This document shows, piece by piece, positions 2,979 through 35,288 of a stretch of DNA of 38,085 nt. The notes under the pieces are model-generated. The model ran no database searches. It was not told the DNA's origin and saw only the letters and a list, made by a program, of their open reading frames with translations. The position numbers were made by a program, and so were the translations under genes. The DNA is from a virus: UHGV virus genome UHGV-0010575; one strand, given 5' to 3'. Numbering within the stretch: the stretch's first letter is position 1; every line of letters begins with the position of its first letter.

Positions 2979-3461
2979 TTATTTGATAAGAAGTGAAGGT
3001 TTCCCAACTTTTAGTTGAGCACCGGGGATATTTATTCCTGCTTTTAGTTGGTGTTTGATTGCCAGTTTGTCGGCTTTAATTGTCGTTTCAAACTCAACGT
3101 ATTCAGGAGGAAGGGCGCTTGAGTCGATGATTTCTACAGTTTCTGACGGTTTGCGGATTGTTACCTGGTGAATACCTGCTCGAATCTTTTTCTTGCCAAC
3201 CATTTCAAGCGATGACGCTATATACGCCATAATTCTGTCAATCTTATTTTGAATTACTGCGGCTCGCTCATTTAGTGACTTTGCCTCTTCCTTGAGGCGT
3301 TCAGCATAACCAGATTCATTTTTAATAATGGCAAGAAGTTGCTCTATTTTATCGGTAAATTCTCCTTCCATGCCTTCTATTGTGTCAGCAATCATCTCTG
3401 GTTCTAAATCTGAATCCATCAATTTTGCGTATTCATTGGCTATTTCATATAGTTTGCTCAC
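2979..3461 (-). CDS. Gp157-family phage protein (160 aa)
   Basis: N-terminal MSKLYEIANEY... and overall pattern recalled as siphovirus Gp157 family, commonly adjacent to RecT. Confidence 0.55.
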   Translation of the reverse strand: MSKLYEIANEYAKLMDSDLEPEMIADTIEGMEGEFTDKIEQLLAIIKNESGYAERLKEEAKSLNERAAVIQNKIDRIMAYIASSLEMVGKKKIRAGIHQVTIRKPSETVEIIDSSALPPEYVEFETTIKADKLAIKHQLKAGINIPGAQLKVGKPSLLIK

Positions 3462-4356
3462 TGGAAACCTCCAGTTTAGCTTTGCATTCTATGTAAATGG
3501 CTTGTACGTTCTGCTGCAATTTCATTCCAGATGTCAGGCGATATGCTTCTGCAAAATATCGCTTCAAATCATCCATGTTTTCTGCCTGAGCCATTTCATC
3601 ACAAAGAAGTTGTGCTTTTTCCATAATTTCCTGCTGGCGTTTCCGTTCATCTTCGCGGATATATTCCTCTGATTTGTGCGGCATAACTGGTTCAGTCCAC
3701 ACACCTTCTTCTTCGTTTAGTACGTGAATAGCACTATCAAGACGTGATGCCTTAGGCCAATACTTGCTTGCACGCTTTACGACCGTCTTTCGCGCCATCT
3801 CATTCCAGTGATTTACCCATGGTCCTTTATCGCTGAATGCCGCCTTGCTTGTTTTCCTTACAGCCTCAATTTCAGCCAGACTCATCTCTTCCGTTAGATA
3901 ATCACCTGCTGGCGTCTTAACTGTGCAGTAAACGCCAACGATATCACCACGATCACCGAAGGCGTTGTATTTATGGGTTGGTGCTTTATCAAGCCCGTTT
4001 GACTCATAGGTATCGTTAGCATGAACAAGTTTTGCCTGACCCCATGAGATAACACCAGACTCCATTGCAATATGGAGCAATCCCATATAACTGATATCAA
4101 GGCAAACCATGCCGTCGCGCGGAACTAGATAAGCAAGTTTGCTGGCCGGGTTTAAGGTGATGCCGATCGCCGCAACATTGATGATGGCGTTCTGTGCGCT
4201 GGTTGGATTTGCCAGTGCCGTTTTAGCAAGGTAATCATTTTTCTGGAAATACTGAATTGCAAACTGGCTTTCCTTAGCCCATGTCACCGTCTGTTCAGTC
4301 AATGCTCCGCAGAATAACTGCTCCTGCTGTTTAACGAATTCAACGATATTGCTCAT
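3445..4356 (-). CDS. recT: RecT-family single-strand annealing recombinase
   Basis: 303-aa translation with characteristic RecT/Bet-type regions; sits where erf/bet is found in lambdoid early-left operons. Confidence 0.8.
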   Translation of the reverse strand: MSNIVEFVKQQEQLFCGALTEQTVTWAKESQFAIQYFQKNDYLAKTALANPTSAQNAIINVAAIGITLNPASKLAYLVPRDGMVCLDISYMGLLHIAMESGVISWGQAKLVHANDTYESNGLDKAPTHKYNAFGDRGDIVGVYCTVKTPAGDYLTEEMSLAEIEAVRKTSKAAFSDKGPWVNHWNEMARKTVVKRASKYWPKASRLDSAIHVLNEEEGVWTEPVMPHKSEEYIREDERKRQQEIMEKAQLLCDEMAQAENMDDLKRYFAEAYRLTSGMKLQQNVQAIYIECKAKLEVSSEQTI

Positions 4357-13869: not shown

Positions 13870-14518
13870 TGGCAGCAAATACCGAAATATTTGGGTAGTT
13901 GGCGATCTGCACGGATGCTACACGAACCTGATGAAAAAACTGGAGACGATAGGATTCGACACCAAAAAAGACCTGCTTATCTCGGTTGGCGATTTGGTCG
14001 ATCGCGGTACAGAGAACGTCGAATGCCTGGAATTAATCACATTCCCCTGGTTCAGAGCTGTACGTGGAAACCATGAGCAAATGATGATTGATGGCTTATC
14101 AGAGCGCGGAAACGTCAATCACTGGATGCTTAATGGCGGTGGCTGGTTCTTTAATCTCGATTACGACAAAGAAATTCTGGCTAAAGCTCTTGCCCATAAA
14201 GCAGATGAACTTCCGTTAATCATCGAACTGGTGAGCAAAGATAAAAAATATGTCATCTGCCACGCCGATTATCCTTGTGACGAATACGAGTTTGGAAAGC
14301 CAGTTGATCATCAGCAGGTAATCTGGAACCGAGAACGAATCAGCAACTCACAAGACGGGATCGTGAAAGAAATTAAAGGCGCGGACACGTTCATCTTTGG
14401 TCATACGCCAGCAGTGAAACCGCTCAAATTTGCCAACCAGATGTATATCGATACCGGCGCAGTGTTCTGCGGAAAGCTCACATTGATTCAGGTACAGGGA
14501 GAAGGCGCGTGGGCATAA
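13847..14518 (+). CDS. ninI: Ser/Thr protein phosphatase (NinI-like, calcineurin-like metallophosphatase)
   Basis: GDLHG, GDLVDRG and GNHE metallophosphatase motifs; start at internal ATG of track ORF. Confidence 0.8.
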
Positions 14519-15027
14519 GAGAACTAAACCTCACCAAAGAACAGCATGAGTGGCTGAATGGCTGGCTTGAACTGTGGGGCGCATGGGTTTATTCAGGTCG
14601 TCTGGAAAAGCGCATGAGCAGCGTAATAGCGAAGTTCATGGAGAGCGTAGAGCCGGGAAGAGTTATGACAAGGCCAATGTGTAATGATGATGATGGAATG
14701 TTGATTTCTCAGGTCGTCGATTCCGTCATGTACATTGACAAGAAAGCCTTTGGCATCCTCCTCAGCTACTACGCTCATGGTTCATCTAAGCGAGCAATTG
14801 CATCCTACTATCACGCGACTGCAAAGCCACGCAAGATGTGTGGACGTGGTGGCGAGGGATGGAGAAAACCTTCAATGGCAACCTGTAGAAACGAAATTGA
14901 CGACATCCTGAAAGCGTCGTTATTTGTTTTGTACCAGCCAATGCAAAATGCTTTCAAAATGCGTAAACGTGTTGAGAAAGTTAAGCATGTTGCTGTTAAA
15001 AGCCTTGACATGCAATTATCTATTTAG
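14509..15027 (+). CDS. Q: Late-gene antiterminator Q (QuuD / phage-82-type family)
   Basis: [11 protein letters not shown]...[12 protein letters not shown]...LLSYYAHG pattern recalled from DLP12 QuuD; GTG start uncertain. Confidence 0.65.
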
Positions 15028-15090
15028 CCATAATTAGAAGGTAAGCTGCCGTTAGTGACTCTTAAGTTGCAACGGTGGCTTTTTTTATTT

Positions 15091-15165
15091 GGGTCAGTCG
15101 TATAAAGGTCATTACGGAAGGCTGTTAACCTTCTTATCGTGGTTCGAGTCCACGCTGTCCCGCCA
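15091..15165 (+). tRNA. tRNA-Asn-like (anticodon GTT), 75 nt, one T·T mismatch in acceptor stem and 3-bp D stem
   Basis: Hand-folded cloverleaf: anticodon loop CTGTTAA, T-arm CGTGG-TTCGAGT-CCACG, discriminator G, CCA encoded. Confidence 0.55.
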
Positions 15166-15170
15166 AACAT

Positions 15171-15246
15171 GCTGGTTTAGCTCCAATGGTAGAGCGGTCG
15201 CCTTGTAAGCGAATGGGTAGCGGTTCAAGTCCGTTAACCAGCACCA
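15171..15246 (+). tRNA. tRNA-Thr (anticodon TGT), 76 nt
   Basis: Hand-folded cloverleaf: acceptor GCTGGTT/AACCAGC, D-arm GCTC-CAATGGTA-GAGC, anticodon loop CTTGTAA, T-loop TTCAAGT, discriminator A, CCA encoded. Confidence 0.7.
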
Positions 15247-15364
15247 TAACTGAGCCGTAGCCACTGGCTATCCTGAATTCATCAGTGATAGTTACGCTGC
15301 GGCCTTCTTTTTTCCCCTTCCCAATATAAGAACTACGCAATCCGTTACTGGCGGAGGCGTTGCT

Positions 15365-15580
15365 ATGAAATCAATGGACAAAATCTCAACTGGCATTGCC
15401 TACGGAACATCTGCTGGTAGTGCGGGATACTGGTTTTTGCAGTGGTTGGATCAGGTCAGTCCGTCACAGTGGGCTGCGATTGGAGTGCTTGGAAGCCTTG
15501 TGTTGGGTTTTCTCACTTATCTGACAAATCTGTATTTCAAAATCAGAGAAGACAGACGAAAGGCTGCGAGAGGTGAATAA
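15365..15580 (+). CDS. S: Pinholin (phage 21 S-type holin, dual-start MKSM motif)
   Basis: 71-aa two-TM protein matching recalled S21 sequence; Met1/Met4 dual start. Confidence 0.8.
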
Positions 15581-16077
15581 TGCCTCCATCATTACGAAAA
15601 GCCGTTGCTGCTGCTATTGGTGGCGGGGCTATTGCCATAGCATCTGTGTTAATCACTGGCCCAAGTGGTAACGATGGTCTGGAAGGTGTGAGACATAATC
15701 CTTACAAAGACATAGTTGGTGTATGGACTGTATGTTACGGGCATACAGGAAAAGACATCATTCCCGGTAAAACGTATACCGAAGCAGAATGCAAAGCCCT
15801 CCTGAATAAAGACCTTGCCACGGTCGCCAGACAAATTAACCCGTACATCAAAGTCGATATACCGGAAACAACGCGCGGCGCTCTTTACTCGTTCGTTTAC
15901 AACGTGGGTGCAGGCAATTTCAGAACATCGACGCTTCTTCGCAAAATCAACCAGGGTGATATCAAAGGTGCGTGTGACCAGCTACGTCGCTGGACATACG
16001 CTGGCGGTAAGCAATGGAAAGGGCTGATGACCCGTCGTGATATTGAGCGTGAAGTCTGTTTGTGGGGGCAGCAATGA
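15580..16077 (+). CDS. R: SAR endolysin (lysozyme with N-terminal signal-anchor-release domain)
   Basis: N-terminal Gly/Ala-rich weakly hydrophobic segment followed by lysozyme domain, as in phage 21 R; TAATG overlap with holin. Confidence 0.8.
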
Positions 16078-18730: not shown

Positions 18731-20142
18731 CCTCGATTAATCCTATCTTTGAACCGTTCATTGAGGCGCATCGCTACAAAGTCGCCAAAGGCGGTCGAGG
18801 TAGCGGTAAATCATGGGCAATTGCGAGGCTGCTTGTTGAAGCGGCGCGCCGACAGCCTGTGCGTATTCTCTGCGCTCGTGAACTGCAAAACAGTATCAGC
18901 GATTCGGTAATCCGGTTGCTTGAAGACACCATCGAGCGGGAAGGGTATTCGGCTGAGTTTGAAATTCAGCGTTCCATGATTCGTCATCTCGGAACGAATG
19001 CTGAATTCATGTTCTACGGCATCAAAAACAACCCGACGAAGATTAAATCGCTCGAAGGCATTGATATCTGCTGGGTGGAAGAAGCGGAAGCGGTAACGAA
19101 GGAATCATGGGATATCCTGATACCAACCATCCGTAAGCCGTTCTCTGAAATATGGGTGAGCTTTAACCCGAAGAACATACTCGACGATACCTATCAGCGA
19201 TTCGTTGTAAATCCTCCCGATGATATTTGCCTGCTGACGGTGAACTACACCGACAACCCGCACTTTCCTGAGGTTCTCCGTCTGGAGATGGAAGAGTGTA
19301 AACGCAGAAATCCGACACTGTATCGTCACATCTGGCTTGGTGAGCCAGTAAGCGCAAGTGATATGGCAATCATCAAACGTGAATGGCTTGAAGCAGCAAC
19401 CGATGCGCACAAGAAACTCGGATGGAAAGCGAAAGGCGCTGTTGTCTCTGCGCATGACCCATCAGATACAGGGCCAGATGCTAAAGGTTATGCATCGCGT
19501 CACGGTTCGGTGGTTAAGCGCATTGCCGAAGGTCTGCTGATGGACATCAACGAGGGTGCTGACTGGGCTACTTCGCTGGCGATTGAAGACGGCGCTGACC
19601 ATTACCTGTGGGATGGTGATGGTGTTGGTGCCGGGCTACGCAGACAGACAACGGAAGCGTTCTCCGGCAAGAAAATCACCGCCACGATGTTCAAGGGCAG
19701 CGAATCGCCATTCGATGAAGATGCACCGTATCAGGCCGGAGCATGGGCTGATGAAGTCGTACAGGGCGACAACGTTCGCACTATTGGCGATGTGTTCCGC
19801 AATAAGCGAGCGCAATTCTATTACGCGCTGGCTGACAGGCTGTATCTGACATATCGGGCGGTTGTCCACGGTGAGTATGCAGACCCCGACGACATGCTGA
19901 GTTTCGACAAAGAAGCGATAGGCGAGAAGATGCTGGAGAAGCTGTTTGCAGAACTGACGCAGATTCAGCGCAAATTCAATAATAACGGGAAGCTGGAGCT
20001 TATGACTAAGGTCGAAATGAAGCAGAAGCTCGGTATTCCATCTCCTAACCTGGCTGATGCGTTGATGATGTGTATGCATTGCCCGGAGTCGGCTGCGCAA
20101 CCCGACTATTCCAGTTACTCAATTCCTTGTGGTGTAGGTTGA
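18727..20142 (+). CDS. terL: Terminase large subunit
   Basis: 471 aa with Walker A-like GGRGSGKS and nuclease-domain acidic residues; overlaps terS stop. Confidence 0.85.
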   Translation: MTSINPIFEPFIEAHRYKVAKGGRGSGKSWAIARLLVEAARRQPVRILCARELQNSISDSVIRLLEDTIEREGYSAEFEIQRSMIRHLGTNAEFMFYGIKNNPTKIKSLEGIDICWVEEAEAVTKESWDILIPTIRKPFSEIWVSFNPKNILDDTYQRFVVNPPDDICLLTVNYTDNPHFPEVLRLEMEECKRRNPTLYRHIWLGEPVSASDMAIIKREWLEAATDAHKKLGWKAKGAVVSAHDPSDTGPDAKGYASRHGSVVKRIAEGLLMDINEGADWATSLAIEDGADHYLWDGDGVGAGLRRQTTEAFSGKKITATMFKGSESPFDEDAPYQAGAWADEVVQGDNVRTIGDVFRNKRAQFYYALADRLYLTYRAVVHGEYADPDDMLSFDKEAIGEKMLEKLFAELTQIQRKFNNNGKLELMTKVEMKQKLGIPSPNLADALMMCMHCPESAAQPDYSSYSIPCGVG

Positions 20143-26719: not shown

Positions 26720-27265
26720 ATGTTGAGTGAAAACGCAAAAGATATTCCTGGATATGAAGGTTTATATGCCGTAACAGAGGATGGGCGAGTATATTCTCAC
26801 TCACGTGTTGTTAAGGCTGCGCATGGCAGCACGCAACTCAGAAAGGGTCGGTGGCTAAAACAACACGAGAATAATAAAGGTTATCTATATTTGCCACTTA
26901 GTGTTGATGGAGTTAAAGTAAAATGGCTTGTGCATAGGCTTGTCGCTCTTGCTTTCGTCCCCAATCCAGAAGGCAAGCCGTTCATAAATCACATAGATAA
27001 CAACCGAAAAAATAATAATGCTTCTAATTTAGAGTGGTGTACTCAAAAGGAGAATATGAAGCATTGCTCATCTCAAGGCAGGGTGAAGTTTCCGGCTTTA
27101 AAAGGAGAAAATAATCCAATTTCAAAGCTCTCATATGAGCAAGTAATAGAAATAAAGAAATCAAAGGGAGTTAATCAAAGAGAGCTTGCTAAAAAATACT
27201 GTGTCAGTCAGACGGTGATTCACAATATCCAGTCTGGTAAATCGTGGAGGCATGTTAATGGCTGA
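26720..27265 (+). CDS. HNH homing endonuclease (NUMOD4 + HNH motifs)
   Basis: [18 protein letters not shown] (NUMOD4-like) and HRLVALAF...[11 protein letters not shown]...NLEW (HNH); AGGAG SD; AT-rich. Confidence 0.8.
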
Positions 27266-34250: not shown

Positions 34251-34499
34251 CTATCTGGTCTCGTACATTTTTTTCAGGGTTTCAAACACCATCTTCTTAA
34301 CAATTTCTGCTTGCTGATCAGCCATGCGTTCTGCTTCGTCACGGTAACCTGCAATCGGTGATGGTTTTGATAGCGCATCCTGAACGATTTGTAATAACTC
34401 AGAGTTCATTGACCTTCCGTTAGCCTCGGCTCTTAATTTCAATTTTTCTCTTACTTCCAAAGGCATACGGAAGTTAAAGTGCGGATCATCTCTAGCCAT
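34251..34499 (-). CDS. mnt: Mnt repressor (ribbon-helix-helix)
   Basis: MARDDPHFNFRMPLEVREKLKLRAEANGRSMNSELLQIVQDALSKPS... closely matches recalled P22 Mnt. Confidence 0.7.
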   Translation of the reverse strand: MARDDPHFNFRMPLEVREKLKLRAEANGRSMNSELLQIVQDALSKPSPIAGYRDEAERMADQQAEIVKKMVFETLKKMYETR

Positions 34500-34522
34500 G
34501 CCATCACTCCAAGTTAGTATCT

Positions 34523-34786
34523 CTAACTTTCGTCTTTATTGTTGCCATACATGCATTTCAACTTCTCAACATCATGTTCAAGATCTATCAATCGTGATGC
34601 TATAGTTGCAAGGTCTAGTGCTTGAATGTGTTTATTTTTTTCGGTCCATGCTTCAAGTGCAGCGACCATCTCAGCATTTAATGAACGAGAATTAGCCTCA
34701 GCCAGTTCAATAAGACGTTCCTTTATCTCTACAGGAAGCCTCAGATTCACTTGAGGGTTTTTGTACTTACGATCAGACATCGGCAC
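34523..34786 (-). CDS. Second ribbon-helix-helix (Arc/Mnt-family) protein (87 aa)
   Basis: PQVNLRLPVEIKERLIELAEANSRSLNAEMVAAL RHH signature. Confidence 0.55.
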   Translation of the reverse strand: MPMSDRKYKNPQVNLRLPVEIKERLIELAEANSRSLNAEMVAALEAWTEKNKHIQALDLATIASRLIDLEHDVEKLKCMYGNNKDES

Positions 34787-35026: not shown

Positions 35027-35226
35027 GTAAAGAATGTTGTTTCTGCGGCATTAGCGAATCAGACACTGATCAAACATACATTTACTCTAAAGAAACAGGT
35101 CGGATGCTGTGTAGTGACTGCGTGTTGGACATCATAAGATACAAGCATCTTGGATGTTCTGCCAGCATTAGCAATATAGGTGAAGTATACGAAGGGAAAG
35201 ATATAACTGATAGAGCAGAAAGTTGA
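35023..35226 (+). CDS. Small Cys-rich (zinc-ribbon-like) protein (67 aa)
   Basis: ATGA overlap with arc stop; CxxC...CxxC pattern (CCFCG ... CSDC). Confidence 0.4.
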
Positions 35227-35288
35227 AGCCCCAACTGCGGGAACAGTCAGGGCTTCGGTATCAACAAAACTTACGAGGTATTATTGAT

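Follow-up and report, generated by a model that had tools for sequence, protein, structure and literature searches.

In Stx phages of the 933W type, the ileZ, argN and argO genes lie between Q/PR' and the stx and lysis genes, and depend on the late promoter. [quoted passage not shown] The same Asn–Thr pair is annotated in phage 21, Sf6 (as "similar to phage 21"), SfI, BTP1, vB_SosS_Oslo, SPN9CC, and others. The paper on SfI describes the pair and lists it also in Sf6, ST64T, PS3, and p21; its authors, who observe no Asn codon bias, call the significance of the Asn tRNA "not clear". A tandem with the same anticodons in the same order, 2 nt apart, is found in another temperate coliphage, P1, in a different context (dmt...tciA) and with identity to the genes studied here of 59% for tRNA-Asn and 82% for tRNA-Thr.

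Such tRNAs have recently been linked to defense evasion. The target of P2 Old, the classic excluder of lambda, is host tRNA-ThrU(UGU), whose cleavage is what kills; E. coli has no other UGU isoacceptor, and phage Thr(UGU) tRNAs rescue by standing in for the cleaved one (Govande et al., 2025, PMC12445682). In the same study, tRNA-Thr21 of phage 21, for which a shorter stem and C28U/G42A are described, conferred protection on cells and largely withstood cleavage in vitro; resistance to Old required both alteration of the CNG motif and a shortened anticodon stem, and host tRNA-Asn(GUU) was cut by Old more slowly than ThrU (PMC12445682). Over-expression of host thrU gave no protection, unlike phage tRNA-Thr (PMC12445682; preprint 10.64898/2026.07.10.737580). 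The Thr(UGU) tRNA of HK446 is a strong counter-defense for the Old-sensitive phages HK97, HK542, and Bas34, but a single Thr tRNA failed to rescue lambda or to relieve recB toxicity, and the escape of HK446 itself is credited mainly to a protein, Oad2 (preprint 10.64898/2026.07.10.737580). A second nuclease, AriB of the PARIS system, targets Lys(UUU), Thr(UGU), and Asn(GUU) tRNAs, with tRNA-Thr(UGU) being a prime target, and host tRNA-Asn(GUU), a secondary but biologically relevant one; the cut is made at 40|41 beside the U36-A-A-U39 motif, and substitutions of U39 and A41 block cleavage in tRNA-Lys (Belukhina et al., 2025, PMC12409363). Phage T5 encodes tRNAs that neutralize PARIS (Burman et al., 2024), of which tRNA-Lys is necessary against the B185 PARIS system (PMC12409363).

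Organization of the Late Leader and Distribution of the tRNA Pair

The analyzed stretch of DNA, further referred to as the window, is 38,085 nt of the virus genome UHGV-0010575, a mosaic P22-like (Lederbergvirus-type) coliphage or prophage, with the best partial matches to vB_EcoP-720R6, CUS-3, and Kapi1, and with an sar RNA identified by Rfam at 35221-35287. ARAGORN identifies exactly two tRNA genes in this 38-kb window, both on the plus strand. These are tRNA-Asn(GUU) at 15091-15165 (75 nt) and tRNA-Thr(UGU) at 15171-15246 (76 nt), both with an encoded CCA end and both also called by Rfam, separated by a 5-nt spacer, AACAT, at 15166-15170 (plus strand; AATAT in other alleles). The RF00005 scores are 55.3 bits (E = 2e-9) for tRNA-Asn and 61.2 bits (E = 4.9e-11) for tRNA-Thr, both far above the gathering score of 29, and no Rfam families other than tRNA were found at the locus. 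The initial annotation had proposed two tRNA genes at 15091-15246 with a 5-nt gap, downstream of Q and tR' and upstream of the lysis genes; the predictors reproduce its coordinates exactly, and the placement is borne out by annotation and folding, as follows.

The upstream gene at 14509-15027 (plus strand, 172 aa) encodes a Q late antiterminator of the Sf6/P22 gene-23 type; the match overlies the annotations of Sf6 gene 59 and BTP1 q, and there are 598 relatives of this protein in IMG/VR. The late promoter PR' at 15005-15034 (plus strand) has the structure TTGACA-18-CATAAT, with 11 of 12 consensus positions matched. It is the only promoter-like site upstream of the tRNA genes in the promoter scan, which yielded no promoters inside the tRNA cassette, and both Sf6 and phage 21 have an annotated promoter at the homologous position. 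The leader terminator tR' (15043-15090, plus strand) consists of a hairpin at 15043-15081 (MFE -21.5 kcal/mol, z = -4.9) and the U-tract UUUUUUUAUUU ending at 15090, which directly abuts the first base of tRNA-Asn; its homologs are the annotated terminator of phage 21 (PMID 1704887 feature) and tR' of Sf6. The elements upstream of the tRNAs correspond to PR', the qut/QBE region, and tR' in the annotation of Sf6 and phage 21.

Downstream of tRNA-Thr, a second terminator-like element at 15254-15317 (plus strand) is formed by a hairpin at 15254-15303 followed by CUUCUUUUUUCCCC; the hairpin together with CUUCUUUUUU folds with MFE -27.7 kcal/mol (z = -5.4), and phage L has a terminator annotated at the homologous place. 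This hairpin is a part of a 61-nt "post" segment, which is retained even in sister phages lacking the tRNAs. As a simple terminator scan of the locus returned no sites, both hairpins are demonstrated by folding instead. The lysis cassette starts with an S21-type pinholin gene (15365-15580), followed by a SAR endolysin gene (15580-16077), both plus-strand ORFs identified by the phage 21 annotation. The tRNA pair is hence enclosed between two terminators of the late leader, on the late strand, ahead of the lysis genes. This layout suggests that the tRNAs are transcribed from PR' under control of Q; the initial annotation was probably right in coupling their expression to late transcription by position. 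A literature search for expression of the cassette tRNAs in lysogens of BTP1 or other phages returned nothing useful.

The phage 21 cassette has the same Asn–Thr order, the same 5-nt spacing, and the same slot directly behind the tR' U-tract, ahead of the lysis genes. The difference lies upstream: Q and PR' of the window belong to the Sf6/P22 type rather than to the phage 21 or lambda types, and sequence homology to phage 21 begins near the transcription start. The tRNA-Asn gene of the window is identical (75/75 nt) to those of phage 21, Sf6, L, JLK-2012, and HK446, while the flanks differ. In total, the cassette is found behind three types of Q/PR', that is, the Sf6/P22 type, as in the window, the phage 21 type, and, in HK446, the lambda type together with a 6S-like leader, in each case starting right after the terminator U-tract, and it is also present in a myovirus-tailed prophage of E2348/69. 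The occurrence in three Q/PR' types and in the E2348/69 prophage indicates that the cassette is a mobile module. It is not rare: 369 of 5,426 complete E. coli genomes carry the pair, annotated by PGAP as tRNA-Asn and tRNA-Thr. The pair is real and ordinary, and it is already known.

In HK446, the tRNA-Asn gene is unannotated, although it adjoins the tRNA-Thr gene, and the 2026 preprint describes a single Thr(UGU) tRNA in this phage.

The content of the slot varies. The tRNA cargo seen at the late leader includes Asn–Thr, Asn–Gly, Asn–Phe–Thr–Arg, and Asn–Thr–Gly combinations, and also Gly(UCC) and Met(CAU), which too are anticodons preferred by Old (preprint 10.64898/2026.07.10.737580). Of 80 sister loci sharing this Q, about half (36) retain both the tR' leader and the 61-nt segment downstream, with no tRNAs between them. 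The inserts found there instead are 150-292 nt of structured, unannotated RNA, except for one of 809 nt that includes an HNH ORF. One of their components is a long hairpin whose tips vary, with one tip being hammerhead-like (24.7 bits against the gathering score of 34); the other is a tRNA-shaped element that has a true T-arm and is closed by a 9-bp stem showing covariation. Rfam produced only sub-threshold matches on these inserts, and ARAGORN called the tRNA-shaped element only at relaxed settings. As about half of the phages with this Q carry other inserts, the tRNA cassette is dispensable.

Anticodon Arms and tRNA-Cutting Nucleases

The tRNA-Thr gene had been described as canonical, which is wrong: a G27·A43 mismatch shortens its anticodon stem to 4 bp, and C14 replaces the usual A14. 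At these positions it departs from a fully canonical core, with its tRNA nature not in doubt. Across 24 distinct alleles, both sides have changed in 11 of 21 stem pairs, a level reached by none of 500 shuffles and compared with 0-3 pairs in slid controls, and positions 27 and 43 are unpaired in 23 of these alleles. Anticodons and positions 37-38 are invariant in both tRNAs across alleles, and the discriminator A73 of tRNA-Thr is conserved. The identity set of E. coli ThrRS comprises G1-C72, C2-G71, G35, and U36. All of these are present in the window tRNA-Thr; C2-G71 is invariant across alleles, and G1-C72 is retained in 23 of 24. Decoding of ACA by this tRNA is implied by the anticodon-dependent rescue with related phage Thr tRNAs.

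The window tRNA-Thr matches tRNA-Thr21 of phage 21 and tRNA-Thr of HK446, which are the same sequence, at 75 of 76 nt, and the anticodon arm is identical. The sole difference from the allele of phage 21, Sf6, and HK446 is at hinge position 26 (G26 instead of A26), outside the anticodon stem; the G26 allele is the second most common one, with 25 loci compared to 91 for A26. Chimeric phage/host Thr alleles also exist (L206, JLK-2012).

Comparison with the host demonstrates where the arms diverge. The anticodon arm of tRNA-Thr is GUCGC/GCGAA, compared to ACUGA/UCAGU in host thrU, so that C28-U-G30 and C40-A-G42 on a 5-bp stem in the host correspond to UCG and CGA on a 4-bp stem in the phage. Hence, the window tRNA-Thr combines the features associated with resistance to Old, that is, the UGU anticodon, altered CNG motifs at 28-30 and 40-42, and a shortened stem. 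Similarly, host asnT has a paired CNG (CGG/CCG) and UAAU, while the window tRNA-Asn has AAG/CUU and UAAC. With regard to AriB, both host thrU and asnT carry U36-A-A-U39, whereas the window tRNAs have G39 (Thr) and C39 (Asn), like the PARIS-neutralizing Thr, Asn, and Lys tRNAs of T5; the site reads UAAGCG in tRNA-Thr and UAACCU in tRNA-Asn, compared to UAAUCA and UAAUCC, respectively, in the host. The window tRNA-Thr has both G39 and G41, as does tRNA-Thr of T5. The two sets of phage tRNAs share two of three anticodons, the replacement of U39, and the lack of a paired CNG, and both Thr(UGU) and Asn(GUU) of the window carry substitutions in the U36-A-A-U39-C40|N41 site. At the same time, the sequences are unrelated, and the T5 genes belong to a large early array, while those of the window are in a late leader.

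Taken together, these data point to defense evasion by a nuclease-resistant tRNA-Thr as the best-supported function, published in 2025–26 for alleles differing by 1 nt; the initial annotation overlooked this role of tRNA-Thr as a substitute for host tRNA-ThrU. Our preferred reading, to which we assign a probability of roughly 0.7, is that both genes are functional tRNA genes in a mobile late-leader cassette, with tRNA-Thr acting as a nuclease-resistant stand-in for ThrU, and tRNA-Asn possibly acting likewise. RNA polymerase starting from PR' and modified by Q would read through both terminators, yielding large amounts of the tRNAs as part of the late transcript, from which RNase P and 3'-end processing of the host would release them. 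In lysogens, slight amounts of the tRNAs could arise if tR' is leaky, without expression of the lysis genes. Lacking both CNG cleavage motifs and having a short stem, tRNA-Thr would survive the nuclease and keep ACA codons readable. The Asn(GUU) tRNA may do likewise for host tRNA-Asn(GUU), the secondary target of AriB and slower substrate of Old. For tRNA-Asn taken separately, an anti-nuclease role is plausible, but we would put it at somewhat below even odds. The P1 tandem with an unrelated tRNA-Asn suggests selection for the combination of anticodons.

Several observations count against a simple version of this reading. Not all such tRNAs carry the determinants: a paired CNG (CAG/CUG) is restored in the Klebsiella-type Asn allele, and in P1 tRNA-Thr keeps a paired CUG/CAG and a 5-bp stem, and tRNA-Asn keeps UAAUCA. 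The T5 set includes tRNA-Lys, while ARAGORN found no tRNA-Lys(UUU) in the whole window, and this, given that T5 tRNA-Lys is necessary against B185 PARIS, also speaks against simplicity, as does the failure of a single Thr tRNA to rescue lambda. Moreover, a paired CNG is absent from 17 of 22 T5 tRNAs; most tRNAs lack these motifs by default, so the absence of a motif alone is weak evidence. As to a RecBCD inhibitor that might trigger Old, the window has only a gene for a Mu Gam-like end-protection protein beside RecT; it is neither lambda Gam nor Gp33, and it is not a known Old trigger.

HepS of Gifsy-1 was considered as another candidate nuclease and rejected. Its main substrate is Thr(GGU), followed by Thr(UGU), with the cut made inside the anticodon loop; as the phage tRNA-Thr shares the cut loop, no escape from HepS is expected.

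A more specific scheme is possible, but we regard it as tentative and rather unlikely in full. It would make the Asn–Thr pair a dedicated two-tRNA module by which temperate enterobacterial phages counter OLD-family Toprim tRNases (P2 Old and PARIS-like AriB), with tRNA-Asn being a cleavage-resistant replacement of the host tRNA, its U4·U69, U13·U22, and C39 serving as resistance determinants, the position between terminators providing low expression in lysogens, and the alternative RNAs of sister phages being other cargo of a hotspot of RNA-based anti-defense.

Codon Usage and Integrity of the tRNA-Asn Gene

The initial annotation suggested that the pair supplies codons for late genes. We compared codon usage of 42 ORFs of the window (9,869 codons) with that of 42 annotated CDSs of K-12 (14,748 codons). 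ACA is indeed enriched, 2.75-fold (14.9 vs. 5.4 per 1,000, p = 6e-14), but it only ranks sixth, after AGG (9.4-fold), AGA (8.8-fold), AUA (4.4-fold), UCA (3.5-fold), and CGA (3.2-fold), and the phage supplies a tRNA for none of these five codons. Of the two Asn codons, AAU is enriched 1.6-fold and AAC, 1.04-fold. ACA is used about equally often by early genes (13.3 per 1,000) and by late ones (15.9 per 1,000). The suggestion thus stands for the enrichment of ACA, while the unsupplied higher-ranking codons, the Asn codons, and the lack of a contrast between early and late genes do not agree with it. High usage of ACA makes the phage more vulnerable to the loss of ThrU.

Pure codon supplementation, with the tRNAs raising the supply of decoders for late protein synthesis and nuclease resistance being incidental, would be favored by the enrichment of ACA and AAU, by a similar ACA bias in the SfI paper (17.3 vs. 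7.1), and by ThrU being the sole UGU isoacceptor in E. coli. We nevertheless consider it improbable, less so than the alternatives discussed below: besides the codon ranks and the even distribution of ACA given above, AAC is barely enriched, in line with the SfI authors seeing no Asn bias; it leaves unexplained the conserved destabilized stem and why precisely the determinants of Old and AriB are lost; and host thrU was unprotective upon over-expression, while phage tRNA-Thr protected. Within the preferred reading, that of a nuclease-resistant stand-in, ACA supply would be a compatible additional effect, and we regard codon supply as a reasonable secondary benefit for tRNA-Thr, explaining neither tRNA-Asn nor the unusual stems.

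The anatomy of tRNA-Asn had been reported correctly, and all details hold: there is a U4·U69 mismatch in the acceptor stem, the D stem is reduced to 3 bp by U13·U22, and the variable loop (TTAT) has 4 nt. The anticodon stem is GAAGG/CCUUC, and the discriminator is G73. The two mismatches deviate from a fully canonical core, with the tRNA nature again not in doubt. The accompanying suggestion that the gene may be degenerate is refuted by comparison of alleles, drawn from IMG/VR, GTDB representative genomes, and phage records. Among 28 distinct alleles, compensatory changes are observed in 13 of 21 stem pairs, which none of 500 shuffles attains (slid controls yield 3-5), and the anticodon stem is paired in 100%. 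The mismatches are themselves conserved (24 of 28 alleles lack the 4:69 pair, and 27 lack 13:22) and persist while neighboring pairs covary. G34-U35-U36-A37-A38 is invariant, and G73 is conserved in at least 90%. The identity set of E. coli AsnRS consists of the anticodon G34-U35-U36 and the discriminator G73, and the window tRNA carries these elements. Neither of the two tRNA genes is decaying, and their oddities are selected, conserved features. A literature search for experimental data on the cassette tRNA-Asn found none.

These data bear directly on the view of the Asn-like gene as a decaying or non-decoding relic, either a hitch-hiker or an RNase P signal detaching the terminator hairpin from tRNA-Thr and the late mRNA. 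Two stem mismatches, the short variable loop, the 5' end abutting the tR' U-tract, and rare alleles with disruptive changes (e.g., L045 and L077) would fit such a relic, but the covariation rules out a pseudogene, and the fully paired anticodon stem, the invariant anticodon loop positions and conserved G73, the persistence of mismatches amid covarying neighbors, the identity of the sequence in phage 21, Sf6, L, JLK-2012, and HK446 despite differing flanks, and the retention of Asn(GUU) beside Thr(UGU) in P1 too leave this view with very little probability. E. coli has four copies of Asn tRNA genes, which counts against the last alternative, in which the cassette would make up for a host tRNA gene that the prophage damaged on integrating. 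It was raised in passing for HK446 (preprint 10.64898/2026.07.10.737580), and many temperate phages do integrate in tRNA genes (SfI in thrW), but it is the least probable of all, as the cassette spans different integration modules and morphotypes (P22-like phages, lambda-like HK446, phage 21, the myovirus-tailed prophage of E2348/69, and SfI), thrW encodes Thr(CGU) and not UGU, and the cassette resides in the late leader, far from att.

Implications for Temperate Phages

Since the function of tRNA-Thr has already been published and both genes are predicted by standard tools, little is new for the window itself. Its interest is rather in being a clean natural example of temperate phages carrying one or two tRNAs for defense evasion and not for codon matching, with the unusual stem of tRNA-Thr being a resistance feature. 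The tRNA-Asn is of interest as its anticodon is that of a secondary PARIS target, and as HK446 has been described with a single Thr(UGU) despite the adjoining Asn gene. This highly conserved partner offers a concrete target for the question whether nucleases of the Old and PARIS types also select for replacements of tRNA-Asn.

Structured RNAs in place of the tRNAs

The position homologous to the tRNA-Asn–tRNA-Thr cassette of the window (15091–15246) is occupied by another, unannotated structured RNA in 36 of the 80 phages that share its Q gene. In these 36 phages both flanks are retained, that is, the tR' leader and the conserved 61-nt segment 3' of the slot. The alternative inserts are 150–292 nt long, with the exception of a single 809-nt insert, in locus L069, which also contains an HNH-like ORF. 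Examples, in the coordinates of each compared locus, are found in L012 (2083–2286), L014 (2083–2240), L013 (2083–2276), L032 (2083–2374), L041 (2082–2231), and L069 (2083–2891).

Two parts are observed in the inserts. The first is a long hairpin, GGUAAGAGCAUUG...CAGUGCUCUUAUC, whose tips vary, and the second is a tRNA-shaped element with a covarying closing stem of 9 bp (GUUGUGSUG/CRSCACAAC), which in the 204-nt insert type carries a true GGUUCGAUUCC T-arm. The tRNA-shaped element is found by itself in two Salmonella siphophages, Seszw and Akira. Scanning of the alternative inserts with Rfam yielded no family reaching the gathering score. In locus L055 the hairpin of a 290-nt insert is capped by a hammerhead type I-like motif (positions 2104–2150, core CUGACGAG...CGAAAC), whose score of 24.7 bits (E = 0.036) falls below the gathering score of 34; the match may have arisen by chance or may mark a genuine self-cleaving ribozyme.

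Related cassettes and their neighborhoods

Both tRNAs are present in phage HK446 (L221, JQ086372.1; tRNA-Asn at 701–775, tRNA-Thr at 781–856), downstream of a lambda-type PR'/6S leader, and its tRNA-Asn is identical to that of the window. Neither gene is annotated in the JQ086372.1 record, and a 2026 preprint on OLD (10.64898/2026.07.10.737580) credits HK446 with one Thr(UGU) tRNA only. Phage P1 (L223) also has a tandem of Asn(GUU) and Thr(UGU) genes, at 1425–1500 and 1503–1578, in the same order as in the window, but the sequence of its Asn gene is unrelated to the window one (59% identity). The P1 tandem is followed by tciA/tciB, and the same two genes are located directly 3' of the lambdoid tRNA array in JLK-2012 (L005), where a match to the STnc100 sRNA family (107 bits, 2261–2433) lies in the late region downstream of tciB.

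In the E2348/69 prophage (L009) an HNH endonuclease gene (19434–19946) separates the Q stop codon from the tR' leader and tRNA cassette. An insert of approximately 700 nt is observed at the matching place, 3' of Q and ahead of the tR' leader, in several IMG/VR loci (L017, L024, L030, L048, L052, L061, L065, L067, L071, L083, and L088). In the window itself, a 181-aa ORF surrounded by late genes for head and tail (26720–27265, plus strand) appears to be the putative HNH gene named in the initial annotation.

Other features of the window

The minus strand encodes sar, the antisense RNA from immI of P22, at 35221–35287 (Rfam, 69.7 bits; gathering score, 43). Close to it, at 34251–34786, lie two small ORFs (82 and 87 aa) that could be the Arc/Mnt repressors, judging by their position. 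Adjoining genes for a Mu Gam-like end-protection protein (PHROG 253, E = 7e-54) and a RecT-like annealase, also on the minus strand (2979–4356), stand in place of the P22 erf/abc or lambda red/gam modules.

Chimeric tRNA-Thr alleles and a possible Thr derivative

The second tRNA of the phage L cII-101 lineage (L004, 1281–1352; also in ST64T and PS3), annotated as tRNA-Leu(TAA), has an acceptor stem and discriminator of the Thr type, combined with a different, aberrant anticodon arm, and reaches only 42 bits with Rfam. It may be a derivative of the Thr gene, either re-targeted or decaying.

Chimeric tRNA-Thr alleles are found in L206 and in JLK-2012 (1281–1356), both with a phage-type 5' part. 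The rest of the gene in L206 coincides exactly with host thrU, while in JLK-2012 it is thrU-like with G42U/U43C, substitutions that disrupt the CAG motif as well as two pairs of the stem. These two alleles suggest that phage and host Thr genes have recombined, with subsequent selection acting on the anticodon stem.
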